This document shows positions 19,001-57,729 of a stretch of DNA of 64,000 nucleotides, piece by piece. Position numbers and translations under genes: made by a program. The stretch lies in the NCBI RefSeq assembly GCF_024298765.1, contig NZ_CP101210.1. One strand, given 5' to 3'. A model generated the notes under the pieces. That model did not search any database. It was given only the letters and a program-made list of their open reading frames with translations, and had not been told where the DNA came from. This DNA comes from Escherichia coli (GTDB lineage Bacteria; Pseudomonadota; Gammaproteobacteria; Enterobacterales; Enterobacteriaceae). Numbering within the stretch: position 1 is the first letter of the stretch; every line of letters begins with the position of its first letter.

Positions 19001-19029
19001 CCGCATTTAATCCAGGAGAATCATTCATC

Positions 19030-21090
19030 GTGTTTTGGCGTGATATGACGTTGTCTATCTGGCGTAAGAAGACAACTGGCCTCAAAACAAAAAAGCGTTT
19101 ACTGCCGCTGATGCTGGCAGCGGCATTGTGTAGTTCACCGGTCTGGGCGGAAGAAGCCACTTTCACCGCTAATTTTAAAGATACTGACCTGAAATCGTTC
19201 ATCGAAACCGTCGGCGCTAACCTTAATAAAACCATCATTATGGGGCCGGGCGTTCAGGGGAAAGTGAGTATTCGCACTATGACTCCGCTCAATGAACGCC
19301 AGTATTACCAGTTATTCCTTAACCTGCTGGAAGCACAGGGGTATGCGGTCGTACCGATGGAAAACGACGTGCTGAAGGTGGTGAAATCAAGCGCCGCGAA
19401 AGTCGAGCCGCTGCCGCTGGTCGGTGAAGGCAGCGACAACTACGCGGGCGATGAAATGGTTACCAAAGTCGTGCCGGTACGCAATGTGTCGGTACGCGAG
19501 CTGGCACCGATTCTGCGCCAGATGATTGACAGCGCAGGCTCAGGCAACGTTGTTAATTACGATCCCTCCAACGTGATTATGCTTACCGGACGCGCCTCCG
19601 TTGTGGAGCGCCTGACGGAAGTGATCCAGCGCGTGGATCACGCGGGTAATCGCACCGAAGAGGTGATCCCGCTGGATAACGCCTCAGCCTCGGAAATTGC
19701 CCGCGTGCTGGAAAGCCTGACCAAAAACAGCGGCGAGAACCAGCCAGCAACGCTGAAGTCTCAAATTGTCGCCGATGAACGCACCAACAGCGTGATTGTC
19801 AGTGGTGACCCCGCCACGCGAGACAAAATGCGCCGCCTGATCCGTCGGCTGGATTCAGAAATGGAGCGCAGCGGCAACAGCCAGGTGTTCTATCTCAAAT
19901 ACAGCAAAGCGGAAGATCTGGTCGATGTGCTGAAGCAGGTCAGCGGTACGCTCACGGCGGCTAAAGAAGAGGCGGAAGGCACGGTCGGTAGCGGGCGTGA
20001 GGTTGTCTCCATCGCTGCCAGCAAACACAGTAATGCCCTGATTGTTACTGCGCCGCAGGACATTATGCAGTCGCTGCAAAGCGTGATTGAACAACTGGAT
20101 ATTCGCCGTGCTCAGGTGCATGTCGAGGCGTTAATCGTGGAAGTTGCCGAAGGTAGCAATATCAATTTCGGCGTGCAGTGGGGGTCAAAAGATGCTGGAT
20201 TAATGCAGTTTGCCAACGGTACGCAAATCCCTATTGGTACGCTGGGGGCAGCGATTTCTGCAGCCAAGCCGCAGAAAGGTTCCACGGTGATCAGCGAAAA
20301 CGGTGCTACCACCATAAATCCGGATACTAACGGCGATCTCTCCACGCTCGCTCAGCTCCTTTCTGGCTTTAGTGGTACGGCGGTTGGCGTGGTGAAAGGC
20401 GACTGGATGGCGCTGGTACAGGCGGTCAAAAACGACTCCAGCTCGAACGTGCTCTCCACGCCGAGTATCACCACGCTGGACAACCAGGAAGCCTTCTTCA
20501 TGGTGGGCCAGGACGTTCCGGTATTAACCGGCTCTACCGTTGGTTCCAATAACAGCAATCCTTTCAATACGGTAGAGAGGAAAAAAGTCGGCATCATGCT
20601 GAAAGTCACGCCGCAGATTAACGAAGGTAACGCGGTACAGATGGTGATTGAGCAGGAAGTCTCGAAAGTGGAAGGGCAGACCAGCCTCGATGTCGTGTTT
20701 GGCGAGCGCAAACTGAAAACCACCGTGCTGGCTAACGATGGTGAGCTGATCGTGCTTGGCGGTCTGATGGACGACCAGGCGGGAGAAAGCGTGGCGAAAG
20801 TGCCGCTGCTGGGTGATATCCCGTTGATTGGTAACCTGTTTAAATCGACGGCGGATAAAAAAGAAAAACGTAACCTGATGGTGTTTATCCGCCCGACCAT
20901 TTTGCGTGACGGTATGGCGGCAGACGGCGTGTCGCAGCGCAAATATAACTACATGCGCGCTGAGCAAATCTACCGCGATGAGCAAGGCTTAACCCTGATG
21001 CCGCACACCGCGCAGCCGATATTGCCAGCGCAAAATCAGGCCTTACCGCCGGAAGTACGCGCGTTCCTCAATGCCGGGAGAACGCGTTAA
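19030..21090 (+). CDS. gspD: Type II secretion system secretin
   Basis: 686 aa with signal peptide, N-domains and secretin C-domain ([16 protein letters not shown]); GTG start with upstream AGGAG. Confidence 0.9.
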
Positions 21091-22583
21091 TGGTGCCTGT
21101 AGCACAGGAAACCACCGCTAACACCGTGCGTCTGCCCTACAGTTTCAGCCGTCGGTTTGGCCTGGTGGCATGGTGCGAAGCGTCGCTGGAGATCCTCCAT
21201 GTTCATCCGTTGTCGCTCTCTGTTTTACAGGAGCTACAGCGGGGGCTGAATGCGCCCTTTACACTGCGGCAAATCGACGAGGCTGAATTTGAACAGCGGC
21301 TGAATGCGGTCTGGCAGCGGGACTCTTCCGAAGCTCGCCAGCTGATGGAAGATCTCGGTTCCGCCGAGGACTTTTTTACCCTCGCTGAAGAACTGCCGGA
21401 AACGGAAGATCTGCTGGAAAGTGACGACGATGCGCCGATCATCAAACTGATCAACGCCATGCTGGCAGAGGCAATCAAAGAAGGCGCTTCGGATATCCAC
21501 ATCGAGACGTTTGAAAAGAGTCTGGTGATCCGTTTTCGTGTTGACGGCACATTACATGAAATGTTGCGCCCCGGTCGTAAACTGGCCTCGCTGCTGGTCT
21601 CGCGTATCAAGGTGATGGCGCGGCTGGATATCGCCGAAAAGCGCGTACCGCAGGATGGCCGTATTGCGCTGCTGCTGGGCGGTCGGGCGATTGACGTCCG
21701 TGTATCTACCATGCCTTCCGCCTGGGGGGAACGGGTGGTGCTGCGACTGCTGGACAAAAACCAGGCTCGCCTGACGCTGGAGCGTCTGGGTTTAAGTCTT
21801 GAACTGACTGCGCAGTTGCGCCAGCTGTTACACAAACCGCACGGCATTTTTCTGGTGACGGGGCCGACCGGTTCCGGCAAAAGCACCACGCTGTACGCTG
21901 GATTGCAGGAGCTGAACAACCACTCGCGTAACATTCTCACGGTTGAAGACCCTATCGAATACATGATTGAAGGGATCGGTCAGACGCAGGTTAACACCCG
22001 CGTCGGCATGACATTCGCCCGTGGCCTGCGCGCGATTTTGCGTCAGGACCCGGATGTGGTGATGGTCGGTGAAATCCGCGATACCGAAACCGCAGAAATC
22101 GCTGTTCAGGCTTCACTGACCGGACACCTGGTACTTTCCACGCTGCATACCAACACAGCGGTGGGGGCGATCACGCGTTTGCAGGATATGGGCGTGGAGC
22201 CTTTCCTGCTCTCTTCCAGTCTGACGGGCGTGATGGCGCAGCGACTGGTTCGCACGCTGTGTCCCGATTGCCGCCAGTCCGTGCCTGCCACTGACGAAGA
22301 AAAACGCCTGCTGGGGATTACCGATGCGCGTACCGTCACGCTGTACCATCCGCAGGGCTGCCCCGCCTGTAATCACAAAGGTTTTCGCGGACGCACCGCT
22401 ATCCATGAACTGATTGTGGTGGACGCCACATTGCGTGATTTGATCCACCGTCAGGCCGGGGAACTGGAGCTGGAACGTTATGTCCGGCAACACTCTGCGG
22501 GTATCCGCAGCAACGGCATTGAGAAAGTGCTCGCCGGAGAAACCTCTCTCGATGAAGTTCTGCGGGTAACCATGGAGGCGTAA
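21090..22583 (+). CDS. gspE: Type II secretion ATPase
   Basis: 497 aa; Walker [10 protein letters not shown]; tetracysteine motif CPDC...CPAC; start overlaps gspD stop. Confidence 0.95.
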
Positions 22584-23806
22584 TGGCACTGTTTTACTAT
22601 CAGGCGCTGGAGCGTAATGGTCGCAAAACCAAAGGCATGATTGAGGCGGATTCCGCGCGTCATGCCCGTCAATTGTTGCGTGGTAAAGACCTCATTCCCG
22701 TGCACATTGAAGCCCGGATGAATGCATCGGCAGGGGGAATGTTGCAGCGTCGGCGGCACGCACATCGTCGCGTGGCGGCGGCAGATCTTGCGCTGTTCAC
22801 TCGTCAACTGGCAACGCTGGTGCAGGCAGCAATGCCGCTGGAAACCTGCTTACAGGCGGTCAGTGAGCAAAGCGAAAAACTGCATGTAAAAAGCCTCGGA
22901 ATGGCGCTGCGCAGCCGGATTCAGGAAGGTTATACCCTGTCGGACAGCCTGCGCGAACATCCCCGCGTCTTTGACTCCCTGTTTTGTTCGATGGTCGCTG
23001 CCGGAGAAAAATCCGGACATCTCGACGTGGTGCTCAATCGCCTGGCGGATTACACCGAACAGCGGCAGCGTCTGAAATCACGCCTGCTGCAGGCCATGCT
23101 CTACCCGCTGGTACTGCTGGTGGTGGCAACGGGCGTGGTCACTATTTTGCTGACGGCAGTAGTGCCGAAAATTATCGAACAGTTTGATCATCTCGGACAC
23201 GCGCTGCCCGCCTCCACCCGAATGCTCATCGCCATGAGCGACACGTTACAGACCAGCGGCGTGTACTGGCTGGCGGGTTTGCTGGGGCTTCTGGTGCTGG
23301 GGCAACGGCTACTCAAAAATCCTGCGATGCGCCTGCGCTGGGATAAAACCTTGCTGCGTTTGCCCGTGACGGGGCGTGTTGCGCGCGGGCTGAATACGGC
23401 GCGTTTTTCCCGCACGTTAAGCATCCTCACCGCCAGCAGTGTTCCGCTACTGGAAGGCATTCAGACCGCTGCCGCCGTGTCGGCAAATCGCTATGTCGAA
23501 CAACAACTGCTGCTGGCGGCAGATCGCGTCCGCGAAGGAAGCAGTCTGCGCGCCGCGCTGGCGGAGTTGCGGCTGTTCCCGCCAATGATGCTGTACATGA
23601 TCGCTTCCGGCGAACAGAGCGGCGAACTGGAAACCATGCTTGAGCAAGCCGCAGTTAACCAGGAACGAGAATTTGATACCCAGGTGGGGCTGGCGTTGGG
23701 GCTGTTTGAGCCTGCGCTGGTGGTGATGATGGCGGGCGTGGTGCTGTTTATTGTCATCGCCATCCTCGAGCCGATGCTGCAACTGAATAATATGGTTGGA
23801 ATGTAA
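22583..23806 (+). CDS. gspF: Type II secretion inner-membrane platform protein
   Basis: 407 aa, GspF-type repeat domains; overlaps gspE stop. Confidence 0.9.
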   Translation: MALFYYQALERNGRKTKGMIEADSARHARQLLRGKDLIPVHIEARMNASAGGMLQRRRHAHRRVAAADLALFTRQLATLVQAAMPLETCLQAVSEQSEKLHVKSLGMALRSRIQEGYTLSDSLREHPRVFDSLFCSMVAAGEKSGHLDVVLNRLADYTEQRQRLKSRLLQAMLYPLVLLVVATGVVTILLTAVVPKIIEQFDHLGHALPASTRMLIAMSDTLQTSGVYWLAGLLGLLVLGQRLLKNPAMRLRWDKTLLRLPVTGRVARGLNTARFSRTLSILTASSVPLLEGIQTAAAVSANRYVEQQLLLAADRVREGSSLRAALAELRLFPPMMLYMIASGEQSGELETMLEQAAVNQEREFDTQVGLALGLFEPALVVMMAGVVLFIVIAILEPMLQLNNMVGM

Positions 23807-23822
23807 TTTACGGAGTTATCAC

Positions 23823-24278
23823 ATGAATTCGTTATCCCGCACACAAAAACCACGGGCAGGTTTTACCCTGCTGGAAGTGATGGTGGTGATTGTTATTCTT
23901 GGCGTCCTGGCAAGTCTGGTGGTGCCTAACCTGTTGGGCAACAAAGAGAAAGCGGATCGGCAAAAAGCCATCAGCGATATCGTGGCGCTGGAGAATGCGC
24001 TGGATATGTACCGACTGGATAACGGGCGTTATCCGACCACAGAACAGGGGCTTGAGGCGCTGATCCAGCAACCGGCCAATATGGCGGATTCCCGTAACTA
24101 CCGTACCGGTGGATACATTAAACGACTGCCAAAAGATCCGTGGGGCAATGATTATCAGTATCTCAGTCCGGGTGAAAAAGGACTGTTTGATGTTTACACC
24201 CTGGGGGCGGATGGTCAGGAAAACGGGGAAGGCGCTGGCGCAGATATCGGTAACTGGAATTTGCAGGAGTTTCAGTAA
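23823..24278 (+). CDS. gspG: Major pseudopilin
   Basis: Prepilin leader and processing site in MNSLSRTQKPRAGFTLLEVMVVIVILGVLASL; GGAG SD before ATG 23823. Confidence 0.9.
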   Translation: MNSLSRTQKPRAGFTLLEVMVVIVILGVLASLVVPNLLGNKEKADRQKAISDIVALENALDMYRLDNGRYPTTEQGLEALIQQPANMADSRNYRTGGYIKRLPKDPWGNDYQYLSPGEKGLFDVYTLGADGQENGEGAGADIGNWNLQEFQ

Positions 24279-24281
24279 GCA

Positions 24282-24845
24282 GTGCCTGAACGCGGATTCA
24301 CTCTTCTGGAAATCATGCTGGTGATTTTCCTTATCGGCCTTGCCAGTGCGGGCGTGGTACAGACGTTTGCGACCGATTCTGAATCGCCCGCGAAAAAAGC
24401 GGCGCAGGATTTTCTGACTCGCTTTGCGCAGTTTAAAGACAGGGCAGTGATCGAAGGGCAGACACTCGGTGTACTAATCGACCCGCCGGGATACCAGTTT
24501 ATGCAGCGTCGTCAGGGGCAGTGGTTGCCCGTTTCTGCGACCCGGTTATCGGCACAGGTTACGGTGCCGAAACAGGTGCAGATGCTGTTACAACCCGGAA
24601 GTGATATCTGGCAGAAGGAATATGCGCTGGAGCTGCAGCGTCGCCGCCTGACGCTGCACGATATTGAACTGGAGCTGCAAAAAGAGGCGAAAAAGAAGAC
24701 ACCGCAGATCCGTTTTTCGCCTTTTGAACCCGCCACGCCGTTTACGCTGCGCTTCTACTCGGCGGCGCAAAACGCATGTTGGGCGGTAAAGCTGGCGCAC
24801 AATGGCGTGTTATCCCTCAATCAATGTGATGAGAGGATGCCATGA
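24282..24845 (+). CDS. gspH: Minor pseudopilin
   Basis: GFTLLEIMLVIFLIGL prepilin N-terminus; GTG start. Confidence 0.8.
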   Translation: MPERGFTLLEIMLVIFLIGLASAGVVQTFATDSESPAKKAAQDFLTRFAQFKDRAVIEGQTLGVLIDPPGYQFMQRRQGQWLPVSATRLSAQVTVPKQVQMLLQPGSDIWQKEYALELQRRRLTLHDIELELQKEAKKKTPQIRFSPFEPATPFTLRFYSAAQNACWAVKLAHNGVLSLNQCDERMP

Positions 24846-25213
24846 AGCGCGGATTTACCTTGCTGGAAGTGATGCTCGCGCTGGCGATTTTTGCGTTGGC
24901 CGCCATGGCGGTGTTACAGATTGCCAGCGGTGCGCTGAGTAATCAGCAGATTCTTGAGGAGAAAACGGTAGCGGGCTGGGTAGCTGAAAACCAGACCGCG
25001 CTGCTTTACCTGATGACCCGTGAACAACGAGCGGTCAGGCACCAGGGCGAGAGTGATATGGCAGGAAGCCGCTGGTACTGGCGAACCACACCGCTGAGTA
25101 CAGGCAACGCGCTGCTCCAGGCGGTGGATATTGAAGTCAGCCTTCACGAAGACTTTTCGCCGGTGATTCAGTCACGACGCGCCTGGTTTAGCGCCGTGGG
25201 AGGCCAACAGTGA
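24842..25213 (+). CDS. gspI: Minor pseudopilin
   Basis: MKRGFTLLEVMLALAIFALA prepilin N-terminus; overlaps gspH stop. Confidence 0.8.
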   Translation: MKRGFTLLEVMLALAIFALAAMAVLQIASGALSNQQILEEKTVAGWVAENQTALLYLMTREQRAVRHQGESDMAGSRWYWRTTPLSTGNALLQAVDIEVSLHEDFSPVIQSRRAWFSAVGGQQ

Positions 25214-25815
25214 GAAGGACTCGCGCTGGTTTCACGTTACTGGAAATACTGGTGGCGATAGCCATTTTTGCCTCGCTGGCACTGATGGCGCAGCAGGTGA
25301 CTAACGGCGTCGCACGCGTGAATAGCGCCGTCGCCGATCACGATCAAAAACTAAACCTCATGCAGCAAACGATGAGTTTTCTGACCCACGATCTGACCCA
25401 AATAATGCCGCGTCCGGTAAGAAGCGATCAGGGCCAGCGTGAACCAGCGTTACTGGCTGGCCCTGGCGTGCTGGCGTCTGAGAGTGGAGGAATGCGTTTT
25501 GTGCGCGGCGGTGTGGTTAACCCGTTGATGCGTCTGCCACGCAGCAATCTGCTCACCGTCGGTTACCGCATTCATGACGGCTATCTCGAACGGTTAGCCT
25601 GGCCGCTGACCGACGCAGCAGGCAGCGTGAAGCCGACAATGCAAAAGTTGATTCCGGCGGATTCGCTCCGCTTGCAGTTCTACGACGGCACGCGCTGGCA
25701 GGAGAGCTGGTCGTCAGTACAGGCGATCCCTGTGGCAGTGCGCATGACCCTGCATTCGCCGCAATGGGGCGAGATTGAACGCATCTGGTTGTTACGCGGG
25801 CCGCAATTATCATGA
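25210..25815 (+). CDS. gspJ: Minor pseudopilin
   Basis: RAGFTLLEILVAIAIFASLA prepilin N-terminus; GTG start overlapping gspI stop. Confidence 0.8.
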   Translation: MRRTRAGFTLLEILVAIAIFASLALMAQQVTNGVARVNSAVADHDQKLNLMQQTMSFLTHDLTQIMPRPVRSDQGQREPALLAGPGVLASESGGMRFVRGGVVNPLMRLPRSNLLTVGYRIHDGYLERLAWPLTDAAGSVKPTMQKLIPADSLRLQFYDGTRWQESWSSVQAIPVAVRMTLHSPQWGEIERIWLLRGPQLS

Positions 25816-26789
25816 TCACCTCACCACCAAAACGCGGAATGGCACTGGTCGTGGTGCTGGTATTGCTGGCGGTTATGATGCTGGTGACCATCACGCTTTC
25901 CGGGCGAATGCAGCAACAACTTGGGCGAACGCGCAGCCAGCAGGAGTACCAGCAGGCGCTGTGGTACAGCGCCAGTGCGGAAAGCCTGGCGTTGAGCGCA
26001 CTCAGTCTGAGCCTGAAAAATGAAAAGCGCGTGCATCTGGCGCAGCCGTGGGCTTCCGGCCCTCGTTTTTTCCCACTGCCGCAGGGGCAAATTGCCGTCA
26101 CCCTGCGTGACGCCCAGGCCTGCTTTAACCTGAATGCCCTCGCTCAGCCGACAACGGCGTCGCGTCCTATCGCGGTACAACAACTGATTGCCCTGATCTC
26201 GCGCCTGGATGTGCCTGCTTATCGGGCCGAACTGATAGCCGAAAGCCTGTGGGAGTTTATTGACGAGGACCGCAGCGTGCAGACGCGTCTGGGGCGTGAA
26301 GACAGCGAGTATCTCGCCCGCTCGGTGCCGTTCTACGCCGCCAATCAACCGCTGGCCGATATCAGTGAGATGCGCGTGGTACAGGGAATGGACGCCGGAC
26401 TTTATCAAAAACTGAAACCGCTGGTCTGTGCGCTGCCGATGACCCGCCAGCAAATCAACATCAATACCTTAGACGTCACGCAAAGTGTGATTCTTGAGGC
26501 GCTGTTTGACCCGTGGTTAAGCCCTGTTCAGGCGCGGGCGTTATTACAACAACGTCCGGCGAAGGGCTGGGAAGATGTCGATCAGTTTCTTGCTCAGCCG
26601 CTACTTGCAGACGTCGATGAGCGTACTAAAAAACAGCTAAAAACCATCCTGAGCGTGGACAGCAATTACTTCTGGCTGCGTTCAGATATCACCGTGAATG
26701 AGATTGAACTGACGATGAATTCGTTAATTGTCCGCATGGGCCCACAACACTTTTCTGTTCTCTGGCATCAGACAGGAGAAAGTGAGTGA
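25812..26789 (+). CDS. gspK: Minor pseudopilin
   Basis: 325 aa, N-terminal hydrophobic segment GMALVVVLVLLAVMMLV; overlaps gspJ. Confidence 0.8.
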   Translation: MITSPPKRGMALVVVLVLLAVMMLVTITLSGRMQQQLGRTRSQQEYQQALWYSASAESLALSALSLSLKNEKRVHLAQPWASGPRFFPLPQGQIAVTLRDAQACFNLNALAQPTTASRPIAVQQLIALISRLDVPAYRAELIAESLWEFIDEDRSVQTRLGREDSEYLARSVPFYAANQPLADISEMRVVQGMDAGLYQKLKPLVCALPMTRQQININTLDVTQSVILEALFDPWLSPVQARALLQQRPAKGWEDVDQFLAQPLLADVDERTKKQLKTILSVDSNYFWLRSDITVNEIELTMNSLIVRMGPQHFSVLWHQTGESE

Positions 26790-27964
26790 GTTCCATGCTT
26801 GAGATTTTTTTCCCGCTTTGCGCCGCTGATCCCATCCGTTGGCAGCGCCATACACCCGACGTGGAGCACGGTATCTGGCCTGACGTTGCTGACGAACGTC
26901 TCCAGCAATGGCTGCAAACTGATGCGATTCGACTCTACATTCCCGGCGAATGGATCAGCGTCTGGCAGGTTGAACTGCCTGATGTGCCCCGCAAGCAGAT
27001 ACCGACGATTCTGCCCGCCTTGCTGGAAGAAGAGCTGAACCAGGATATCGATGAACTGCATTTCGCCCCGTTGAAAATCGACCAGCAACTGGCAACCGTA
27101 GCTGTGATTCACCAGCAGCATATGCGCAACATTGCGCAGTGGTTGCAGGCAAACGGCATCGCCCGCGCTACCGTCGCGCCGGACTGGATGTCCATTCCTT
27201 GTGGGTTTATGGCTGGCGATGCGCAACGGGTTATCTGCCGTATCGATGAATGCCGGGGATGGAGCGCCGGGCGGGCGCTGGCTCCGGTCATGTTCCGCGC
27301 ACAGCTCAATGAGCAGAATTTACCGATTTCACTAACTGTGGTCGGCATTGCACCGGAAGAACTGTCTGCATGGGCTGGTGCGGACGCCGAACGCCTGACC
27401 GTTACGGCTCTGCCCGCCATTACCACTTATGGCGAACCGGAAGGGAACCTGCTAACAGGGCCGTGGCAGCCTCGTGTTAGCTACCGAAAACAGTGGGCGC
27501 GCTGGCGGGTGATGATTCTGCCGATATTGCTGATTCTGGTTGCGCTGGTAGTGGAACGGGGCGTGACGTTATGGAGCGTCAGCGAACAGGTGGCGCAAAG
27601 CCGCACCCAGGCGGAGAAACAGTTCTTAACGCTATTCCCGGAGCAGAAGCGGATTGTGAATTTACGCTCGCAGGTGACGATGGCGCTGAAAAAATATCGC
27701 CCACAGGCTGATGATACCGATCTGCTTGCCGAGTTGTCTGCGATCGCCAGTACCCTGAAATCCGCATCACTTTCCGACATTGAGATGCGTGGTTTCACCT
27801 TTGATCAAAAACGCCAGACGCTTCACCTCCAGCTACGGGCTGCGAACTTTGCCAGCTTCGACAAACTGCGTAGCGCACTGGCGGTAGATTATGTTGTGCA
27901 ACAGGACGCGTTACAGAAAGAGGGTGATGCGGTTTCCGGCGGCGTAACGTTGCGGAGGAAATAA
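26786..27964 (+). CDS. gspL: Type II secretion system protein L
   Basis: 392 aa with cytoplasmic domain, single TM (VMILPILLILVALVV) and periplasmic domain; start uncertain (GTG 26786 or ATG 26795). Confidence 0.8.
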   Translation: MSSMLEIFFPLCAADPIRWQRHTPDVEHGIWPDVADERLQQWLQTDAIRLYIPGEWISVWQVELPDVPRKQIPTILPALLEEELNQDIDELHFAPLKIDQQLATVAVIHQQHMRNIAQWLQANGIARATVAPDWMSIPCGFMAGDAQRVICRIDECRGWSAGRALAPVMFRAQLNEQNLPISLTVVGIAPEELSAWAGADAERLTVTALPAITTYGEPEGNLLTGPWQPRVSYRKQWARWRVMILPILLILVALVVERGVTLWSVSEQVAQSRTQAEKQFLTLFPEQKRIVNLRSQVTMALKKYRPQADDTDLLAELSAIASTLKSASLSDIEMRGFTFDQKRQTLHLQLRAANFASFDKLRSALAVDYVVQQDALQKEGDAVSGGVTLRRK

Positions 27965-27965
27965 C

Positions 27966-28502
27966 ATGTTACGCGATAAATTTATTCACTATTTTCAGCA
28001 ATGGCGTGAACGCCAGTTAAGCCGTGGCGAACACTGGCTGACACAACACCTGGCGGGGCGTTCGCCGCGTGAAAAGGGCATGTTACTGGCAGCGGCGGTG
28101 TTTCTGTTTAGCGCCGGATATTACGTCCTCATCTGGCAGCCTTTGAGCGAACGGATTGAGCAACAGGAGACGATGTTGCAACAGATGGTGGCGATGAACG
28201 CGCGACTGAAGAGCGCCGCGCCGGATATTATTGCGGCGCGAAAATCCGCCACAACAACGCCTGCACAGGTATCGCGGGTCATCAGCGATAGTGCTTCTGC
28301 GCACTCAGTGGTTATCAAGCGGATAGCCGAGCGCGGGGAGAATATTCAGGTCTGGATAGATCCGGTGGTGTTTAATGACCTGCTGAACTGGTTAAAAGCA
28401 CTGGATGAAAAGTATGCGCTGCGGGTGACACAAATTGATGTCAGCGCAGGTGAGAAGCCTGGAATGGTGAATGTGCAGCGGCTGGAATTTGGACGGGGAT
28501 AA
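27966..28502 (+). CDS. gspM: Type II secretion system protein M
   Basis: 178 aa with single N-terminal TM (GMLLAAAVFLFSAGYYVLIW); last gene of the cluster. Confidence 0.8.
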   Translation: MLRDKFIHYFQQWRERQLSRGEHWLTQHLAGRSPREKGMLLAAAVFLFSAGYYVLIWQPLSERIEQQETMLQQMVAMNARLKSAAPDIIAARKSATTTPAQVSRVISDSASAHSVVIKRIAERGENIQVWIDPVVFNDLLNWLKALDEKYALRVTQIDVSAGEKPGMVNVQRLEFGRG

Positions 28503-28613
28503 AGTATCAGGAGATTAATATCAATAAAATTACTCTCGTTAACGTGGCGAGAGTAATTCCCCCAGACTTTATAAGCTAATTTTTTTCGTGAAGGTTATTG
28601 TCAGAGCCAAAAG

Positions 28614-28640
28614 CAAAAACCCGCCTTGTGGCGGGTTCTT
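28614..28640 (-). terminator. Rho-independent terminator-like hairpin
   Basis: Minus-strand reading cccgccacaaggcggg stem-loop followed by TTTTTGCTTTTGG; lies just 3' of the tRNA-Phe remnant and downstream of gspM. Confidence 0.5.
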
Positions 28641-28649
28641 AAGAATTAG

Positions 28650-28668
28650 TGGTGCCCGGACTCGGAAT
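28650..28668 (-). other. tRNA-Phe 3'-end remnant (19 nt, island attachment-site repeat)
   Basis: TGGTGCCCGGACTCGGAAT is the reverse complement of the 3' end of E. coli tRNA-Phe (…ATTCCGAGTCCGGGCACCA); sequence diverges immediately after, so no tRNA body is present here. Confidence 0.7.
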
Positions 28669-28915: not shown

Positions 28916-29242
28916 TTATGGCTGCCAGAAATGATCTGATGGTTTGTCGTCTGGCTCTGCAAGTACCCTGTTGATATCCCGGGAACCATGAACGATACGT
29001 TCGATACGAACTTCAGTATCCAGTACCCTGAACAGCAGAAGGTAACGACCATACGAACAACCTCTGATCCCAGCCCCTAACTCGGGTCTTTCTCTGTAGA
29101 GTACTGGCGATTCGGCTATCAACAGACATTGTTGGTAAAGCTCTTCGGTAAAACTGATTGCACGGACAGGATTATCCTGAGCGATCCAGTCACCTATAGC
29201 TTCAAGATCGTGTTCTGCTAATGGTGAAACAGTCAGTTTCAT
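28916..29242 (-). CDS. parE: ParE/RelE-family type II toxin
   Basis: 108 aa MKLTVSPLAEHDLEAIGDWIAQDNPVRAISF...RIVHGSRD; overlaps upstream antitoxin gene by 4 nt. Confidence 0.75.
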   Translation of the reverse strand: MKLTVSPLAEHDLEAIGDWIAQDNPVRAISFTEELYQQCLLIAESPVLYRERPELGAGIRGCSYGRYLLLFRVLDTEVRIERIVHGSRDINRVLAEPDDKPSDHFWQP

Positions 29243-29502
29243 ATTGGCTGTTCACCTTCTGCCATCTTTTTGTATTTGTGCGTCAGTCGCCCGAATACCT
29301 CTTCAGCACTTTTACTTTCACCGCTGTTGATGCCTGCGGCCACGGCGCTCTGGAGTGATTCAAGCTTTATCTGCTGTTCCCGTTCTTCCAGAGCACGAAG
29401 TCCGGCACGAATGACTTCACTTGTATTGTTGTACCGACCACTTTCTATTTGTTCGCGGATAAACGTTTCAAAGTAAGGACTGAGGGATACACTGGTAGGC
29501 AT
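29239..29502 (-). CDS. parD: ParD-family (RHH) type II antitoxin
   Basis: 87 aa MPTSVSLSPYFETFIREQIESGRYNNTSEVIRAGLRALEEREQ..., ribbon-helix-helix antitoxin pattern. Confidence 0.75.
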   Translation of the reverse strand: MPTSVSLSPYFETFIREQIESGRYNNTSEVIRAGLRALEEREQQIKLESLQSAVAAGINSGESKSAEEVFGRLTHKYKKMAEGEQPI

Positions 29503-29573: not shown

Positions 29574-30440
29574 TTATGCCTTGCGGCTTTTGTTCACTGT
29601 GCTTGCCAGGGCTTCCGGGTAGTGTCTGGCAATAATATCATTAAGCCTGTCAACCAGCTCTGGTTTCCTGAACGTGATGTGCGCGGAGCCCTTCTTAAAG
29701 TATCTGATGCTGAACATCTCATCTTCATAGTCCTCTTTACCCTGAACAGACTGGATGTGATCATCCAGATGAATGGTGATGTTTTCCCGGTTGTCGGGGA
29801 TCGGTTTGCCGCTGAACAGGTGCAGCATTCTTTCCAGATCGGCAAGTCGATCGGCCTGTTGTCCGGTGATAAGATGAAACCCCCACCGGTCCCACCTCAC
29901 CAGATTGTTGACGATAATTTTACTGCCAAATTTGCAGGGTGAATTGGTTTTGTAATTCCAGCTCAGTCCTCTGAAAACGTTGAGCACCCCTCGCTCAAAC
30001 ACTTCATCTTTGTTCTGGTGCAGTTGTTCAAACGTGCTCAGGATATTTGCTTCGCTGATTTCCGGAAAATTATCGTACTCCAGTGACCGGTACCATGTAT
30101 CACGGGCTTGTGCATCCATTAATGACAGCATCCCTGAACGTTGCATCAGATCACGCCAGATTTCGCGGTCAAGGTTGCGGGTGATGGCTTTCATTGCGGT
30201 TTCCGGTTTTTCCATCAGCCAGCAACCGCAGCGAAAATCCTGTTTCATGGCCCAGTCCAGTGCAGTTTTACCTCCGATGCTTTCCGTCAGCACCGAGATT
30301 TCTGCCAGTTGCCGGATAAGTGTGTCGATTTGCAGCAGCGCACTCTTTCGTACAGCCAGAATGTGGCGGATGCTGGTTGAGCCGATAACGTCCGTATGCC
30401 CGTTGACCACTTCCGGACGGGGGGCTGTGATTTCAGACAT
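29574..30440 (-). CDS. Hypothetical protein (DUF4942-like, CP4-type island cargo)
   Basis: 288-aa ORF with no recognisable catalytic motif; family assignment from recollection of genes adjacent to cbtA/cbeA modules. Confidence 0.45.
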   Translation of the reverse strand: MSEITAPRPEVVNGHTDVIGSTSIRHILAVRKSALLQIDTLIRQLAEISVLTESIGGKTALDWAMKQDFRCGCWLMEKPETAMKAITRNLDREIWRDLMQRSGMLSLMDAQARDTWYRSLEYDNFPEISEANILSTFEQLHQNKDEVFERGVLNVFRGLSWNYKTNSPCKFGSKIIVNNLVRWDRWGFHLITGQQADRLADLERMLHLFSGKPIPDNRENITIHLDDHIQSVQGKEDYEDEMFSIRYFKKGSAHITFRKPELVDRLNDIIARHYPEALASTVNKSRKA

Positions 30441-30524
30441 AATCGATATTCCTTTTTGCAGATAAATGAAAACGCCAGCCCTGTTCAGGCTGGCGTCAGT
30501 GGAATGAAGTCTGGTGAGTAAGAC

Positions 30525-30722
30525 TCACCGGTTCTGTTGCAGAAGCTGCAACTGGCGCAGGATACGGATATCCTCCCTGGCCTGTTCGATACAGGGCAAC
30601 AGTGCTGCCGAATCCGTTCTATCCTCATCGTTGTCAAAGATAATTCCCGATTCGCAGTCGATATTGTCCTGTAGCCACGCAATCAGAATATCCAGTGCGG
30701 TTTCCGTGGTTAATGATTTCAT
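30525..30722 (-). CDS. Small hypothetical protein (CP4-like island)
   Basis: 65 aa from MKSLTTETALDILIAWLQDNIDCESGIIFDNDEDRTDSAALLPCIEQ...; resembles small conserved ORFs near cbtA modules. Confidence 0.4.
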   Translation of the reverse strand: MKSLTTETALDILIAWLQDNIDCESGIIFDNDEDRTDSAALLPCIEQAREDIRILRQLQLLQQNR

Positions 30723-30733
30723 GTTGTTCCTGG

Positions 30734-31225
30734 TTACCAGTCGAAAGTGGGCAGGTCCGGCAGACATTCAGCGCTGGCATCCAGATGAATGAGACTGACG
30801 CCATAACGTCGGGTAAGTGTGACAACCAGACGACGGAACGTTTTTGACAGGCCCAGGCGCTTAAGCCGCAGAACCGGGTATGACCACGCATCGGTACGTA
30901 ACAGATATCCGCTACCTGTGAAATGAATCCATTCTGATTCGCCGGTGCCATTCGTCTGATGTGACAGCGAGTACAGCCAGGCGTTGTCCTTTGCCGTGAT
31001 ATGCGCGGTACTGCAGCGTATGCCGGTAAGGGCCGCCGCAGATGATGGCGTGCGCTCTGCTGATGTCCGGTCAGATTCATCAACAACACGAAGGGAGTAA
31101 CCGTTATCGCAGACCACGTTAATCAGTTCAGCGAGAGTAACACCATCGACGTCAACGACAATGCGCCCCATGTTCAGTGCCTGCACGTTAATGCTGTCGG
31201 CTTCCAGCGTCAGGGCCAGTTTCAT
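30734..31225 (-). CDS. Hypothetical protein downstream of cbtA (YeeW-like position)
   Basis: 163-aa ORF whose start overlaps the cbtA stop; no motif recognised. Confidence 0.4.
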   Translation of the reverse strand: MKLALTLEADSINVQALNMGRIVVDVDGVTLAELINVVCDNGYSLRVVDESDRTSAERTPSSAAALTGIRCSTAHITAKDNAWLYSLSHQTNGTGESEWIHFTGSGYLLRTDAWSYPVLRLKRLGLSKTFRRLVVTLTRRYGVSLIHLDASAECLPDLPTFDW

Positions 31226-31599
31226 TGTTTCGCCCCCGGATGTTTACCCAGGGTAATGTTATTTACCGTTCTGTAATTGTCGCGGGCCATCAGGCCGGTT
31301 GCCCGGCGGGCCCGGAGGATATCAATACTGTTTATTAACTGAGAACGGGTACAGGCGCTGAATCCTGGCTGGTCGGTACGTACCAGTGCGTATTTTTCAA
31401 CGAGAAAGTTCACCGCATCGCACAGTGAAATGCCTGCCTCAATATGCTGCTCAATCACACGTTCATCAGCGAACGGTGTGTCATTCAGTGTGAGGCCGTA
31501 ATGCTGGTCCAACAGTCGGGTGAGCAGTGTCTGCCAGATGGTGACGGGAGACGGGCAGCGCGATGCCTCCCGTACGTGTGTGTCAGGTAATGTTTTCAT
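31222..31599 (-). CDS. cbtA: CbtA/YeeV-family type IV toxin
   Basis: From MKTLPDTHV...; ...WQTLLTRLLDQHYGLTLNDTPFADERVIEQHIEAGISLCDAVNFLVEKYALVRTDQPGFSACTRSQLINSIDILRARRATGLM is near-identical to CbtA/YkfI/YpjF toxins as I recall them. Confidence 0.85.
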   Translation of the reverse strand: MKTLPDTHVREASRCPSPVTIWQTLLTRLLDQHYGLTLNDTPFADERVIEQHIEAGISLCDAVNFLVEKYALVRTDQPGFSACTRSQLINSIDILRARRATGLMARDNYRTVNNITLGKHPGAKQ

Positions 31600-31645
31600 C
31601 TTAAGTTCTCTGTAACTGGTAGTGCTAAAGGTGAGATATTCGGGG

Positions 31646-32020
31646 TTATGAGGTGGTTGCGGGTGCCAGTGTCGGATAAACAGCCATATAAACGTAACCA
31701 CAGCTGCCGAGGGTGTCGGCTTCGCAGGTCAGCCCTCTGGCATACAGCGTGACGGTATGCTGATGGCGGGGATTCAGTTCACCGCTGGTGAGCATGAGTT
31801 CCAGTTGTTTCATCAGCAGCGGAAAGGCCTGGTCCAGATGATACGCATCCGCGTCGCTAAACTGCCCCCTGATACCGGCGCGGTCGGCAAGGTAATGCAA
31901 CCGGTTACCCTCCTGCACCAGACGTGCCCCGAAACAGGGCGTCACGGTGCAGGGGAGCCCCCACCAGGGGCGGTCGTTGTTGTTGTCGGGATGCGTTGTC
32001 CCGGGGTGTGTGTCTGACAC
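31646..32020 (-). CDS. cbeA: CbeA/YeeU-family type IV antitoxin
   Basis: MSDTHPGTTHPDNNNDRPWWGLPCTVTPCFGARLVQEGNRLHYLADRAGIRGQFSDADAYHLDQAFPLLMKQLELMLTSGELNPRHQHTVTLYA... Confidence 0.85.
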   Translation of the reverse strand: MSDTHPGTTHPDNNNDRPWWGLPCTVTPCFGARLVQEGNRLHYLADRAGIRGQFSDADAYHLDQAFPLLMKQLELMLTSGELNPRHQHTVTLYARGLTCEADTLGSCGYVYMAVYPTLAPATTS

Positions 32021-32099
32021 GATAAAATCCTCACAGAAAATCGGTTAAGAATGCTCCGATGGTGGCGATAATTCGGCTCATCAGAATGCCCTTTCTGAT

Positions 32100-32321
32100 T
32101 CAGTTCAGGGTAACGCTCATCAGACGGACATACGGACCAAAACTGTCCTTACGGCGTTCAGCAAACACGGCCAGCACACCGGGAATATCCTGCACTTCAC
32201 GGCCGGTATACGTATCCGTGCTACCGTGCCAGCGGTATTTACCGGTACAGAACGGAAAAAGACGGGATGCAGGATGCTGTTGGTGAATACGCATGGCTTC
32301 ACCACGGGTGATGATTTTCAT
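32100..32321 (-). CDS. yeeT: YeeT-like protein (DUF987)
   Basis: 73 aa MKIITRGEAMRIHQQHPASRLFPFCTGKYRWHGS... Confidence 0.8.
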   Translation of the reverse strand: MKIITRGEAMRIHQQHPASRLFPFCTGKYRWHGSTDTYTGREVQDIPGVLAVFAERRKDSFGPYVRLMSVTLN

Positions 32322-32383
32322 AATGGGATACCTCTGAAGACAGAAGATAAAAGTGAAAACAGGTGTGATGTGGTTGTGACGGG

Positions 32384-32860
32384 TTAAAGCAGACCGTGTT
32401 CGGCAAAGGAGAATACCTGGTTGCCACCGACTATCAGATGGTCCGGCACCCGGATATCCACCAGGGCCAGCGCCTGTACCAGACGTTCAGTGATAAGCCG
32501 GTCTGCCTTACTGGGGGTGACTTCACCGGACGGGTGATTGTGCGCCAGCACCACGGCAGCGGCATTGTGGTACAGGGCACGTTTAATCACCTCCCGGGGA
32601 TGGACTTCTGTGCGGTTGATGGTGCCTGTGAAGAGGGTTTCACCCGCAATCAGCTGATTCTGGTTGTTCAGATACAGCACCCGGAACTCTTCCCGCTCCA
32701 GTCCTGCCATGTTCAGAATCAGCCATTCCCGTGCCGCATGCGTGGAGGTGAAGGCCACGCCGGGCTCATGAAGATGACGGTCCAGGGTTTTCAGGGCCCG
32801 CTGAATGAGGCTGCGCTCGCCGGGCGTCATCTCTCCGGGCAGAAAGGAAAGCTGTTGCAT
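32384..32860 (-). CDS. yeeS: RadC-like JAB-domain protein
   Basis: JAMM-like motif in VVLAHNHPSGEVTPSKADRLITERL; start placed at MQQLSFLPGE. Confidence 0.8.
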   Translation of the reverse strand: MQQLSFLPGEMTPGERSLIQRALKTLDRHLHEPGVAFTSTHAAREWLILNMAGLEREEFRVLYLNNQNQLIAGETLFTGTINRTEVHPREVIKRALYHNAAAVVLAHNHPSGEVTPSKADRLITERLVQALALVDIRVPDHLIVGGNQVFSFAEHGLL

Positions 32861-32875
32861 TGTGCTTCTCTCCAT

Positions 32876-33361
32876 TCAGTCGATGATGCGCATAATGGCG
32901 TTGCATTCCGGATGCTGCAGGGCGTAATCCCGCAACCGATAATAATGGACCGTCATGGCATAATTCTCTGTACGACAGGCGTGATGACTGTACGCCATCA
33001 GACAGGCGGCAATGCCGGCGGCTTCCGGGCTCATTTCAGCGCGGTTGCCGTTCATGGCATTGAACAGTACCCATGTTTCGTCATCATCGTCATCCGGTTC
33101 GGGTACCATAAATGCCCCACCGTTGTTCAGGGTGTACAGATTCCAGATACCACCGCAGTAGTCTTCGCAAAGACGGTCCATCCAGCCGAAGACACGGGGC
33201 TCCAGGGTCACCCACTGTGGAATGAGGCCAAAATGTTGCGGCCAGAAACTGATGCGCTGTTCATCAGGGACGGGAGTGGCAACCAGTTGAGACTGGTTAT
33301 TCCCTGGTGCAGTGGTTACGGAAACAGAAGGCGTGGTGGAGCTATGCGAAAAGGTTGTCAT
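32876..33361 (-). CDS. Antirestriction protein (ArdB/KlcA-like, YfjX family)
   Basis: 161 aa with acidic stretch PEPDDDDDETW and WVTLEPRVFGWMDRLCEDYCGGIWNLYTLNNGGAFMVP motif region recalled from YfjX/YafX proteins. Confidence 0.65.
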   Translation of the reverse strand: MTTFSHSSTTPSVSVTTAPGNNQSQLVATPVPDEQRISFWPQHFGLIPQWVTLEPRVFGWMDRLCEDYCGGIWNLYTLNNGGAFMVPEPDDDDDETWVLFNAMNGNRAEMSPEAAGIAACLMAYSHHACRTENYAMTVHYYRLRDYALQHPECNAIMRIID

Positions 33362-33452
33362 GAGATGATTCCTTATAAAAAGTAAATGAATGGAAGAATG
33401 CCCGGGGACTGGTACAGACGTGAGTCAGGGTTGCACTTTCAGGGAAACAGCA

Positions 33453-34271
33453 TCAGCGCATGCTCTCCAGCAGCGTTTCTGCCATCACCCACAATGCGCG
33501 ATTGAGCTTAATGTCCGTGTCGATGCTGTGAATGGCACGGGTGTGGATACGTTTTCCTTTAGCGCTGCGACCAGAAATCCCGCCTTTCAGCATATTTTCC
33601 TGGATGGTCTGATAAGCACTCCACAGGTCCTTACCGTAATCCTCCCGGCGTCGTGGCGTCAGAATGTCGGCGGTGGTGACGGGCTGATGTTCGTCACCAT
33701 AACGGTAAGTCAGTGCCGCCTGTGCCAGCGCCTGGCGTGCCGGTGGCGGCAGGACCAGCGACTGCATGGCATCACGCTTTTCCTCAATCCGGTCAAAAAC
33801 GCCCACCACTTCGTAAGCCCCTTCAATGACTCTGTCCACCACATTTCCCCGGTGCGGAACACGCACTTCCCCCAGAGACTGACCACAGACGCAGCCGTTC
33901 TGGCAGACGAACCTGAAGTAACCCGGCAGCATCTGGTAGCTGGAGGTACCGTCATGGGAGTTCAGCAGGATGATTTCAGGGACATGTTGTCCGTTTATCT
34001 CCCCGTCACGGCGCAGACGCAGCATGTGTTTGGTATACCCCCGGCGGCCCGGGTCACGTACGCGGGTCTGGCAGGCAAAGAAGGGCTGAAAGCCTTCCCG
34101 CTGCAGGCTTTCCAGCACGGTGATGGTGGGGATCCAGGTATAGTTCTCGCTTCTGGATGTGTGCTTATCTTCCCCGAATACGCTGGGGACGACCTGCATC
34201 AGTTCTTCGCGAGTTAAGGGGCGGTCACGGCGTATCTGGTTCGCATAACCAAAACGACTTGCTAATCGCAT
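33453..34271 (-). CDS. DUF932-family protein (YfjQ/YafZ-like)
   Basis: 272 aa; position and sequence typical of CP4-type islands. Confidence 0.65.
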   Translation of the reverse strand: MRLASRFGYANQIRRDRPLTREELMQVVPSVFGEDKHTSRSENYTWIPTITVLESLQREGFQPFFACQTRVRDPGRRGYTKHMLRLRRDGEINGQHVPEIILLNSHDGTSSYQMLPGYFRFVCQNGCVCGQSLGEVRVPHRGNVVDRVIEGAYEVVGVFDRIEEKRDAMQSLVLPPPARQALAQAALTYRYGDEHQPVTTADILTPRRREDYGKDLWSAYQTIQENMLKGGISGRSAKGKRIHTRAIHSIDTDIKLNRALWVMAETLLESMR

Positions 34272-34361
34272 GATTTGCTCCTTATGAATGAGTTAGCGAT
34301 ATAAATGAAAAAGCCGCGCCTCCCGGAGAAGACGCGGCCTGATGGATGAAATGAATGACGT

Positions 34362-34571
34362 TTATTGTCTGAGAAGCCCTTCACTGGCGAGCCACACATT
34401 AAGCTGTTTTCCGGCATCGGATTCAAAATTCCAGTACCGCCAGCGCAACTGACCTTCAGCATTACGGATAACCAGCCGGAAATGCGTTCCCTGGTCATCT
34501 TCAATAAGCACATTGCGGTAAGCTGTTGTGACGGCAACCGCCTGTTCGCGTGAGAAAGGGCCTTCGGGCAA
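34362..34571 (-). CDS. Small DUF905-like protein
   Basis: 69 aa [49 protein letters not shown]... Confidence 0.45.
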
Positions 34572-34600
34572 TTAAACAGGGTGACAGTCCGACATACCGG

Positions 34601-35278
34601 CTATTTTCCGATAAATTCAACGCTGGCACCGGTGGCATTACCGTCAGCACCAACCGTGACGGTCACTTTGTCGTACGCACGGTCTTCAGGATTGAACACT
34701 TCAAACTCAACCTTATTGCCTTTTACTTCGTAAGAGCCAAAATCAGCGGTTTCTGTTGTTTCCTCGTCATATTCCCGGGCGTATGCCAGCCGGGCAGCCT
34801 GCAGGACGGAATCTTTATTAATGGCGGGTGTCTGTTTCGGGGAAAAACCGGCAAGTGATGTGACAAATTTCGGACAGACCTTCAGCATATCACCGCGGGT
34901 GAATTCCATTCGTACACCAAATGCCTGTAAAACGGACACATCACGCTCTGCTATGGAGTGAACGGCTTTTTTGACCATTTCCGGCGCCTGTCCGATTTCC
35001 ACCTCAACAGCCCTGAATCCCGTCTGCTGATTACACATTTGTGATGTGGGGATCAGGTTACCGTTAATACTGATACGGCTGCCCAGGAGCGTCTGTACAC
35101 CATTCGGGCATCCCTGCATCAGGCCGGTAATACCAATCGTGCCATTTTTCAGCATTACCAGCGCCTGACCATCTTCCGTCATGGTCTGACACCAGCCGTT
35201 TTTGACAGCCCAGTTGCCGGCGGAGGCGGAGAATGATGCCACAGTGAACAGCAGGGGAAAAAGAGCTCTGGTATTCAT
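34601..35278 (-). CDS. Exported hypothetical protein (signal peptide)
   Basis: From MNTRALFPLLFTVASFSASAG...; cleavable-looking signal peptide; no functional motif recognised. Confidence 0.45.
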   Translation of the reverse strand: MNTRALFPLLFTVASFSASAGNWAVKNGWCQTMTEDGQALVMLKNGTIGITGLMQGCPNGVQTLLGSRISINGNLIPTSQMCNQQTGFRAVEVEIGQAPEMVKKAVHSIAERDVSVLQAFGVRMEFTRGDMLKVCPKFVTSLAGFSPKQTPAINKDSVLQAARLAYAREYDEETTETADFGSYEVKGNKVEFEVFNPEDRAYDKVTVTVGADGNATGASVEFIGK

Positions 35279-35425
35279 GACTGACCTCTGAAATGAACGT
35301 ACGGTGTTATTGATAATGATGGAAGGTATGCAGTGACTGTTCAGGGAATGACGTAGCCGTATATTTAGTTTTCTGTTCAACATATTGTCTCCATACCTGT
35401 CGGGACGGCTTTGGCAGGCCGGCGA

Positions 35426-36106
35426 TCACAGGTTAAAGGTGTTGATAAGTTTATGGATGAAAGAGAAATGTGGCAGGGCGGAGATAAAACGCTCTTCAGC
35501 GACCAGACTGTGGATGTGGCCTCTCCGTTCAAACCGTTCTGATGTCAGGCTGACTGATTTGATATCTGCCAGAGGAAAGACCTGCAGTTTTCCCTTCTGT
35601 AACGCGATCAGATACCAGCTACCGCTGTAATAAATGAGCCGGCAGGGCTCCAGTGACGGATACCATCGCTCAGTCATCAGAGAGATGTGGATACACTGTC
35701 TTATTGCCAGGATGAGTTGCGAGAAACACTCGGGGAACGTTGCAGTGATATCCGGCGCCGGTAGCCAGATAAGGCAGGGAGAGGGCTCCTGGTTGTCGGT
35801 AAGACAGGTTATCAGTCGTCCGTTCCGGAGCGGAAGTATCCGTGCGATCCCGGTATTCTGTATAAAAGAAAGCATTTCAGGGATCGCACCTGGGCTGCTC
35901 TGTCGTCTGAGGCTGTACCTGCCATTTCTGTACTCTAAATCCAGGTGAACCAGACGCTGATGAAAATCGCGCTGTAAAGTACGTTCTGTAACGCCAAATT
36001 CATCTGACAGTGTTTTTAGTGACAGAGATTCTCCGGCCATCAGTCGGCTGATAATGAGTGATAAGCGAACCGCCAGGCGATCATGCCGGGAACGATTATC
36101 AGACAT
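35426..36106 (-). CDS. HTH + WYL-domain transcriptional regulator (YfjR-like)
   Basis: MSDNRSRHDRLAVRLSLIISRLMAGESLSLKTLSDEFGVTERTLQRDF... N-terminal HTH, C-terminal ...GSWYLIAL... WYL-like segment. Confidence 0.7.
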   Translation of the reverse strand: MSDNRSRHDRLAVRLSLIISRLMAGESLSLKTLSDEFGVTERTLQRDFHQRLVHLDLEYRNGRYSLRRQSSPGAIPEMLSFIQNTGIARILPLRNGRLITCLTDNQEPSPCLIWLPAPDITATFPECFSQLILAIRQCIHISLMTERWYPSLEPCRLIYYSGSWYLIALQKGKLQVFPLADIKSVSLTSERFERRGHIHSLVAEERFISALPHFSFIHKLINTFNL

Positions 36107-36308
36107 AGATGTGCACTCCGTAAGAAAACATCTTTTATTTCATGATGTTATTATGCATCATGATGTTGAAAGGATGTGTCGCATCCGAATAATCAGAAAT
36201 AAAATGCAGCAGAAAAAATATTCCTTTAATTATCTGATTTTTAAGCAGGGTTTCATAAAAAGAAGAATGCTTGTTAATCCAGCGACACATCCTGTCGGCG
36301 TGAGTGTG

Positions 36309-37193
36309 TCAGAACAGACGATCCCACAGTGTGACCAGCAAGTGGATAATGCGGTCCCGGGCCTTACGCAGAAGCTGTAACATCCAGGCCGGAAAGCTGA
36401 ATTGGGCAACGGCAGCGTCAAAGCTTTTCCCGATGGCGTCACCAAAAGTTTGTTGTGCGTGTTTCCGGGCCTGTTCAGAGCGGTTTTCCCCCCGGATATG
36501 TGAATAAACTGCGCTGGTTGCCTGTGGTGGCAGTGCGTGGATCATCAGCGACACCAGTGCCGGAAGATTCCAGCCGACAGGTGCGGCAACGGAGAGTACC
36601 GGAAATGATGACGGGAACAGGGGTGCCACCCGGGCTGTTACTGTCGCCAGTGAGAGTTCCTGCTGACGGGACGGGCATTTTTCTGTGTCGTTCCATTCTT
36701 CAGCAGGAAACACGCGATCGGCATGGCTGAGAACAAACAGAAAACGCGAGGGATCTGCACCTTCATTCAGTAAAAACTGATGCATGGCAATATCAGCAGC
36801 ATACGCACGTTCATCAGCCCGCAGGATCCAGATAATCAGATCCAGTTCCGGCAGTAACTGACGGTAAAGCTCCCGGTATTCCTGATCATGCTGCGGTGTC
36901 TCACCAATGCCGGGCATATCGACCAGCGTCATTCTGCGTTCACCGAGCTGCAGGGTAAGACGATGAGCCTGGCGGGTGCAGCCGTTCAGGGGATGCGTGG
37001 CGCAGATACGGGACTGAAAAATGGCATTACACAGACTGCTTTTGCCGGTGCCGGATTTACCCATAATGCCAATTACGGGCTCGTAATGAATAACACCGTG
37101 GAGATGTTCAAGGATTTTCTGGCGAATTTCTTCAGGAAGAAACGTCAGATATGATTTTACTTGTGCAGAGAGGGAAGAATGGCTGAATGACAT
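36309..37193 (-). CDS. GTP-binding protein (YfjP/YkfA/YeeP family)
   Basis: G1 motif GIMGKSGTGKSS, G3-like DMPGIGE; 294 aa. Confidence 0.8.
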   Translation of the reverse strand: MSFSHSSLSAQVKSYLTFLPEEIRQKILEHLHGVIHYEPVIGIMGKSGTGKSSLCNAIFQSRICATHPLNGCTRQAHRLTLQLGERRMTLVDMPGIGETPQHDQEYRELYRQLLPELDLIIWILRADERAYAADIAMHQFLLNEGADPSRFLFVLSHADRVFPAEEWNDTEKCPSRQQELSLATVTARVAPLFPSSFPVLSVAAPVGWNLPALVSLMIHALPPQATSAVYSHIRGENRSEQARKHAQQTFGDAIGKSFDAAVAQFSFPAWMLQLLRKARDRIIHLLVTLWDRLF

Positions 37194-37377
37194 ACCGGTA
37201 TCCTGTTGATTTCGCTGAACCGGATCACACTAATCCGGTTTATCATTCAGGTAATATGGACGTGAAAAATGATGGAATGTCTGAATTACGGACATGATTG
37301 TTAAAGTGTAATGGAGTATGAAGTGAGTTTTTCCGAACGGGAACTAATGACATACTGCGGTTTCAGGAGATGAGAGG

Positions 37378-42579: not shown

Positions 42580-42645
42580 AACGCAAAATAATAACCAAAC
42601 AATACACTGATTTTTTAACGATTTAACTTCATTTAGGTAGTATCA

Positions 42646-54986: not shown

Positions 54987-57729
<2,743 letters not shown>

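Follow-up and report, generated by a model that had tools for sequence, protein, structure and literature searches.

The window analysed here is a stretch of 64,000 nt of Escherichia coli DNA, which carries on its plus strand, at 28650–28668, the 19-mer TGGTGCCCGGACTCGGAAT. The left flank of this 19-mer is the T2SS-beta cluster, with gspL and then yghD as its terminal genes, and the features from yghD to the right end of the window are listed below.

27966–28502, plus strand: yghD (gspM family), last gene of the T2SS-beta cluster and backbone gene beside the pheV site (ORF list; annotated in RefSeq in strains 104 and E166, whose DNA is 100% identical here; 94% identical to K-12 yghD).
28614–28641, minus strand: intrinsic terminator hairpin and T-run, downstream (in the tRNA sense) of the pheV remnant (terminator scan; also found after intact pheV in K-12).
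28650–28668, minus strand: 19-nt copy of the pheV 3' end, exact boundary between island and chromosome and probable attR (K-12 alignment, pheV match, comparator junctions).
28916–29502, minus strand: ParE toxin (28916–29242) and ParD antitoxin (29239–29502), the first island genes (100% protein identity to annotated ParE/ParD).
29574–37193, minus strand: CP4-44/CP4-57-like "yee" backbone module (annotations, Pfam, 500-bp identity scan, protein identities).
37378–41809: low-GC stretch with a gene for a 376-aa hypothetical protein (37378–38508, plus), ~1.5 kb without an annotated gene, a Gp2/YagK-YfjJ family gene (40014–40745, plus) and IS1 (~41112–41809, minus).
42073–51613, plus strand: defence cluster, with a RelB/DinJ-like gene first (RefSeq annotation of near-identical loci; PADLOC).
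42646–44625, 44625–45911 and 45911–49147, plus strand: hsdM, hsdS and hsdR of a type I restriction-modification (R-M) system.
49147–49701 and 49701–50543, plus strand: Kiwa, i.e., KwaA (E = 9e-16) and KwaB (E = 7e-14) (PADLOC).
~50579–51613, plus strand: RhuM/PDC-S05, end of the defence cluster.
51671–58469: mobI, degenerate IS3-family elements, a gene for a 224-aa hypothetical protein and an intron-split IS3 (Rfam; annotations).
~55469–57729, minus strand: complete group II intron inside an IS3-family element, with ltrA at 55550–57058 (Rfam Intron_gpII match at 55460–55546).
58923–64000: KpLE2-like segment with nanY (58923–60041, minus), nanX (60053–61270, minus), a transposase remnant and a yjgX-like phosphoethanolamine-transferase pseudogene that runs past the end of the window.

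Read from the ParDE side, the "yee" module has the order DUF4942, DUF957, DUF5983, CbtA, CbeA, DUF987, RadC, antirestriction protein, DUF932, DUF905, hypothetical protein, WYL/YafY and GTPase. The toxin-antitoxin and prophage-remnant genes that a preliminary description of this DNA, made from the letters alone, had placed just inside the boundary are therefore ParE/ParD, DUF4942 and a CP4-like module containing CbtA/CbeA. The two Kiwa genes, which directly follow the type I R-M genes, are labelled hypothetical in RefSeq. Genes of mobility or of a selfish character on the island are IS1, the IS3 elements, the group II intron, ParDE, CbtA/CbeA and R-M. The lowest GC of the window, 33–39%, is found at 37000–40000, and the 376-aa hypothetical protein encoded there (37378–38508) gave no PADLOC match. 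A second group II intron signal, an orphan D1-D4 match (Rfam, 67 bits) at 62558–62697 on the plus strand, has no reverse transcriptase adjacent to it and lies in DNA with 99% identity to the yjgZ-yjgX' region that K-12 has next to leuX.

Two other identities were considered for the whole of this DNA and rejected. An ICE was rejected since near-identical DNA over 28.7–64 kb is annotated with mobI only, without T4SS or relaxase genes; a functional prophage was rejected since only CP4-like remnants and the Gp2/YagK-YfjJ gene are present, without capsid, tail or lysis annotations.

Reverse-complemented, the 19-mer matches the final 19 nt of E. coli pheV exactly. In the tRNA sense it reads ATTCCGAGTCCGGGCACCA, i.e., nt 58–76 of K-12 pheV, the 3' end including CCA, and blastn-short aligns it to K-12 pheV on the minus strand with 19/19 matches (E = 1.4e-5). 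It occurs a single time in the 64 kb even if up to three mismatches are tolerated, against a chance expectation of 0.01. ARAGORN found no tRNA gene in the 64-kb window, indicating that the body of the pheV tRNA is absent; both the complementarity to the tRNA-Phe 3' end and the missing tRNA body had been noticed in the preliminary description, and both hold. Neither selC or leuX fragments nor further, degenerate copies of the pheV repeat were found when the window was searched for them. The terminator at 28614–28641 is the original chromosomal pheV terminator, retained beside the remnant.

Comparison with the empty site gives the boundary to the base. The distance between pheV and yghD in K-12 is 148 bp, the 3' end of pheV pointing to yghD, and the alignment of the window to K-12 is near-identical from yghD through the intergenic region and through the whole 19-mer, with divergence directly after. 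Past the 19-mer, K-12 enters the tRNA body (CGAACCAAGGACA...) and the window has the unrelated GAAACTGGTTATATAACC.... The comparison with genomes having an empty site, which had been proposed as a check, was run on K-12 and on complete genomes: yqgA, pheV and yghD are contiguous in K-12 and in 1509 of the 5426 complete E. coli genomes, so both the occupied and the empty state are common. The proposed check of composition likewise came out as anticipated, the GC content falling from 0.531 on the backbone side (1–28649) to 0.466 on the island side (28669–64000). On the backbone side itself, the gspD-K part of the T2SS-beta cluster is intact in the window (19000–27000); K-12 aligns in the gsp region only at 18090–18999 and 27000–28668, which reflects the known K-12 deletion. 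Further left of the gsp cluster, a full-length match to the C0719 sRNA (Rfam RF00117, 294 bits) lies at 9551–9772 on the minus strand.

The same island end recurs elsewhere. We collected nine comparator loci, which are contigs with the exact DUF5983 protein and the same ParD/ParE end, and found the 19-mer 248 bp past parE in all nine. The island-side sequence is alike across these loci, with scattered substitutions in one gspM-side locus (L013). The sequence after CCA, on the other hand, varies by locus: it is the gspM flank at pheV, the cadC-cadBA flank at pheU or, in tandem arrays, the beginning of a further integrase-led island. The pheU tRNA gene likewise ends in the same 19-mer. Because the 19-mer stays at a fixed offset with its flank changing with the context, it is the exact boundary of an element and behaves as an attR. 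The 19-mer thus sits where K-12 has pheV beside yghD and forms a constant terminus in pheV islands, pheU islands and tandem arrays, as the earlier reading of it as a distal direct repeat would have it.

Several of these loci have features of their own. A P4-type integrase gene starts less than 200 bp after the 19-mer attR in L014, L015 and L017 (~12558–14040), and this arrangement indicates tandem island arrays at the tRNA-Phe site. In L011 (7015–9706) and L016 (7316–9706), beta-lactamase and DDE transposase genes lie beside a shortened (117-aa) cbtA in the same CP4-like/ParDE end. Please note that the exact DUF5983 and Gp2-family proteins are both very common (4456 and 1070 blocks, respectively).

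The window contains no integrase gene in its 64 kb; comparator genomes show the other end of the island. Between 26 kb and ~31.5 kb, a stretch that includes the junction, the window has 100% identity to strains 104 and E166; in E166, ~60 kb from the junction, a tyrosine integrase is followed by an intact tRNA-Phe, yqgA and speC. Among the 5426 complete E. coli genomes, which were compared with the junction, with window 26–46 kb and with 39–64 kb, none reproduces the entire mosaic, and the best genome over 26–46 kb is CT282 (96.8%). The order in CT282 is gspM, a repeat variant, the CP4-like module, the cargo of the window, an integrase remnant, tia, an eptA-like gene, an AAA protein gene, an integrase, tRNA-Phe, yqgA and speC. 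Its repeat is a 23-nt variant with a 1-nt deletion, and the equivalent of window base 64000 is located ~9 kb before pheV. The rebuilt pheV of CT282 is followed by a different hairpin (GGACCTCC...GGAGGTCC) than that of K-12 pheV, and this hairpin sequence also follows the 19-mer in the pheU-side and tandem loci. By analogy with the established P4-like integration model, on which this reading is based, the shared hairpin may derive from an attP that would carry the tRNA 3' end together with its own terminator. AR13438, which has the same cargo at pheV, also has an integrase and an intact tRNA-Phe at the proximal end; its distal part is different and larger (ICE remnants) and is no close analogue of the window. 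The integrase and intact tRNA-Phe that the preliminary description expected past the right end of the window have their counterparts in E166, with its identical junction, and in CT282, with its shared cargo.

To the right of the junction the closest relative of the window changes. In a 500-bp identity scan, 26.0–31.5 kb and 33.0–34.5 kb are 100% identical to 104/E166, 31.0–32.5 kb is 99–100% identical to FY10, and from 36 kb to the end the window is ~100% identical to FY10; the switch is located inside the repeated CP4-like module. The alternation of 104/E166-like and FY10-like patches at 31–36 kb suggests gene conversion between paralogous island backbones rather than a single crossover. The window at 59328–64000 (nanY, nanX, the yjgZ region and the yjgX-like pseudogene) is 99.3–99.6% identical to the K-12 DNA beside leuX-intB. 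Given the mixed relatives and this KpLE2-like tail, the island is composite, i.e., a distal end of the pheV/pheU type fused to a cargo block.

The cargo block was then defined by window 39.1–64 kb, and complete genomes carrying it at ≥83% coverage and ≥99% identity were taken as carriers (n = 10; loci L002, L003, L005 and L028–L034), with the tRNA anchor checked in each. The block is at selC in five of them (FY10, UID2309220015, STE15, ApSLC23 and CM2), at leuX in two (Z226-7 and EM10-18-28), at pheV in two (CT282 and AR13438) and at pheU in one (EC332). The presence of this ~25-kb block at four tRNA loci implies cargo exchange between islands with different tRNA anchors. FY10 (selC) and Z226-7 (leuX) have the group II intron, which the otherwise collinear CT282 (pheV) lacks. 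Over the last 500 bp of the window, CT282 and FY10 are both 100% identical to it and Z226-7 is 97.8% identical; past the window end, the collinearity of CT282 with FY10 extends for another 3.4 kb, after which they diverge toward their own integrases. The proteins encoded by nanY, nanX and hsdR do not differ between the selC-type and the pheV-type genomes. The earlier statement that everything from 28669 to 64000 is island DNA accordingly stands, with a refinement: this DNA is absent from the pheV-yghD interval of K-12 and has a lower GC content, as stated, but it is a mosaic, composite structure and not one element.

Taken together, we read the 19-mer as the attR, i.e., the distal direct repeat, of a composite GI-pheV genomic island whose pheV and integrase lie beyond the window, and we give this reading a probability of roughly 0.88. 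The integration mechanism and the position of pheV and the integrase past the window end are what we infer from the comparators. A P4-type tyrosine integrase would recombine the attP of the island, bearing a tRNA-Phe 3'-end copy, with the chromosomal pheV 3' end; integration would rebuild an intact pheV beside the integrase at the proximal end, and the original pheV 3' end, with its own terminator, would be displaced to the far end beside yghD. The DNA from 28669 to at least 64000 is accessory and constitutes an insertion when compared with the empty site. Homologous recombination between islands has shaped this composite, in which the ParDE and CP4-44-like end, which other pheV and pheU islands have as well, is joined to the cargo block within the CP4-like module.

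The right-hand anchor of the island lies beyond the window. A yghD-attR end could have been joined to an island at another tRNA gene (selC, leuX or pheU), either because crossover in the shared CP4-like module produced a large duplication or rearrangement or because the assembly is chimeric across that repeat. The window from 36 to 64 kb is, after all, nearly the same as FY10, where the block ends at int and tRNA-Sec; eight of the 10 complete genomes with the block carry it outside pheV, selC being the commonest site (5 of 10); the group II intron distribution sides with the selC and leuX carriers and not with CT282; and the switch of closest relative falls inside a repeated module. However, pheV, selC and leuX are all on the plus strand in K-12 and their islands share the same polarity relative to the tRNA, and a single reciprocal crossover would be expected to leave a deletion of ~0.7–1.4 Mb or an unstable duplication of that size. 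The identity at 31–36 kb is, moreover, patchy in the manner of gene conversion, with no single breakpoint, and the equality of CT282 and FY10 at the right end of the window, and for 3.4 kb on, leaves the window with no signal for selC. CT282 and AR13438 carry the same block in genuine pheV islands. We consider a non-pheV anchor unlikely on these grounds. That the anchor is pheV is, in our view, highly probable, because CT282 and AR13438 provide such genuine pheV islands and because a crossover to a selC or leuX island would presumably delete or duplicate 0.7–1.4 Mb.

It might also be asked whether an attachment site is needed at all, i.e., whether the 19-mer is simply the rest of a pheV gene destroyed by an insertion or deletion, with no rebuilt copy and with pheU as the sole tRNA-Phe gene. 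Just 19 nt of the tRNA are left, and no tRNA gene is found in the 35 kb to the right, as this explanation would have it; yet this island type also terminates in the 19-mer, with an unchanged offset, at pheU and where islands adjoin in tandem, which makes the 19-mer part of an att structure, genomes with the identical junction retain an intact pheV at the proximal end, and published GI-pheV islands have the same 19-bp attR class (PMC11537424). Destruction of pheV is thus very improbable, and the attR of a pheV island is the reading that we retain. A broader and rather speculative extension of that reading, to which we give little weight, is that a block of ~28 kb (defence plus KpLE2-like DNA) moves among selC, leuX, pheU and pheV by homologous recombination between conserved backbones, namely the CP4-like module and, at the opposite side, the int'-tia-eptA region; taken to its extreme, the pheV attR end would be joined directly to a selC- or leuX-anchored island.

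For annotation, the junction provides a base-exact boundary. Left of 28650 is the conserved backbone with the T2SS-beta cluster; right of the boundary are at least 35 kb of accessory island with toxin-antitoxin pairs and an anti-phage defence cluster. That one near-identical block of at least 25 kb is found at four tRNA loci in different strains is a mildly useful addition to what is known.

The closest known system is GI-pheV itself. A survey published in 2024 in PLoS Genetics found this island in 41 of 66 reference genomes, with an attR including part of pheV that is mostly a 23-bp (16 strains) or a 19-bp (10 strains) direct repeat (PMC11537424). The attR sequences listed there include TTTCATTCCGATTCCGGGCACCA (CFT073, ST131 and others) and TTTTATTCCGAGTCCGGGCACCA (SMS-3-5), and the 19-bp form is given as ATTCCGA(G/T)TCCGGGCACCA after TTTC or TTTT (PMC11537424). 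Among the modules described in that survey are a nan module and a "yee" module related to CP4-44, the latter with strong signals of recombination; islands of the intP4.3 type carry tia (PMC11537424). The window shares with these islands the site between pheV and the yghD side, and its TTTC+ATTCCGAGTCCGGGCACCA is a perfect member of the 19-bp class; the repeat of CT282 corresponds to the 23-bp class with the 1-nt deletion that is listed in PMC11537424. CP4-44-like "yee" and nan modules in a mosaic shaped by recombination are also common to both. The differences are that the window has the perfect 19-mer, whereas CFT073 and ST131 have a T-substituted form, and that its cargo is type I R-M, Kiwa, RhuM and KpLE2-like DNA instead of the pap, iuc and sat virulence modules.

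The right end of the window resembles KpLE2/PR-Y at leuX of K-12, with the same order nanY-nanX-yjgZ-yjgX' relative to the integrase side at the 99.3–99.6% identity given above for 59328–64000. The K-12 segment, however, follows leuX-intB and contains an IS4, whereas the segment in the window lies inside an insertion with a pheV attR at its other end and has no IS4. The islands at selC, leuX and pheU (e.g., in FY10, Z226-7 and EC332) share ≥99% identity with window 39–64 kb and the same gene order, but differ from the window in tRNA anchor, in integrase and in those distal ends that were examined; FY10, for example, has neither ParDE nor gspM beside DUF4942. In CP4-44 and CP4-57 of K-12, the gene families and their order (GTPase, WYL, DUF932, antirestriction, RadC, DUF987, CbeA/CbtA, DUF5983, DUF957 and DUF4942) are the same, but the module in the window forms the distal portion of a tRNA-Phe island, with ParDE and the pheV-derived repeat at its end. 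The feature is of an already known kind at a known hot spot; tRNA-Phe islands with 19- or 23-bp repeats and mosaic modules are textbook cases.
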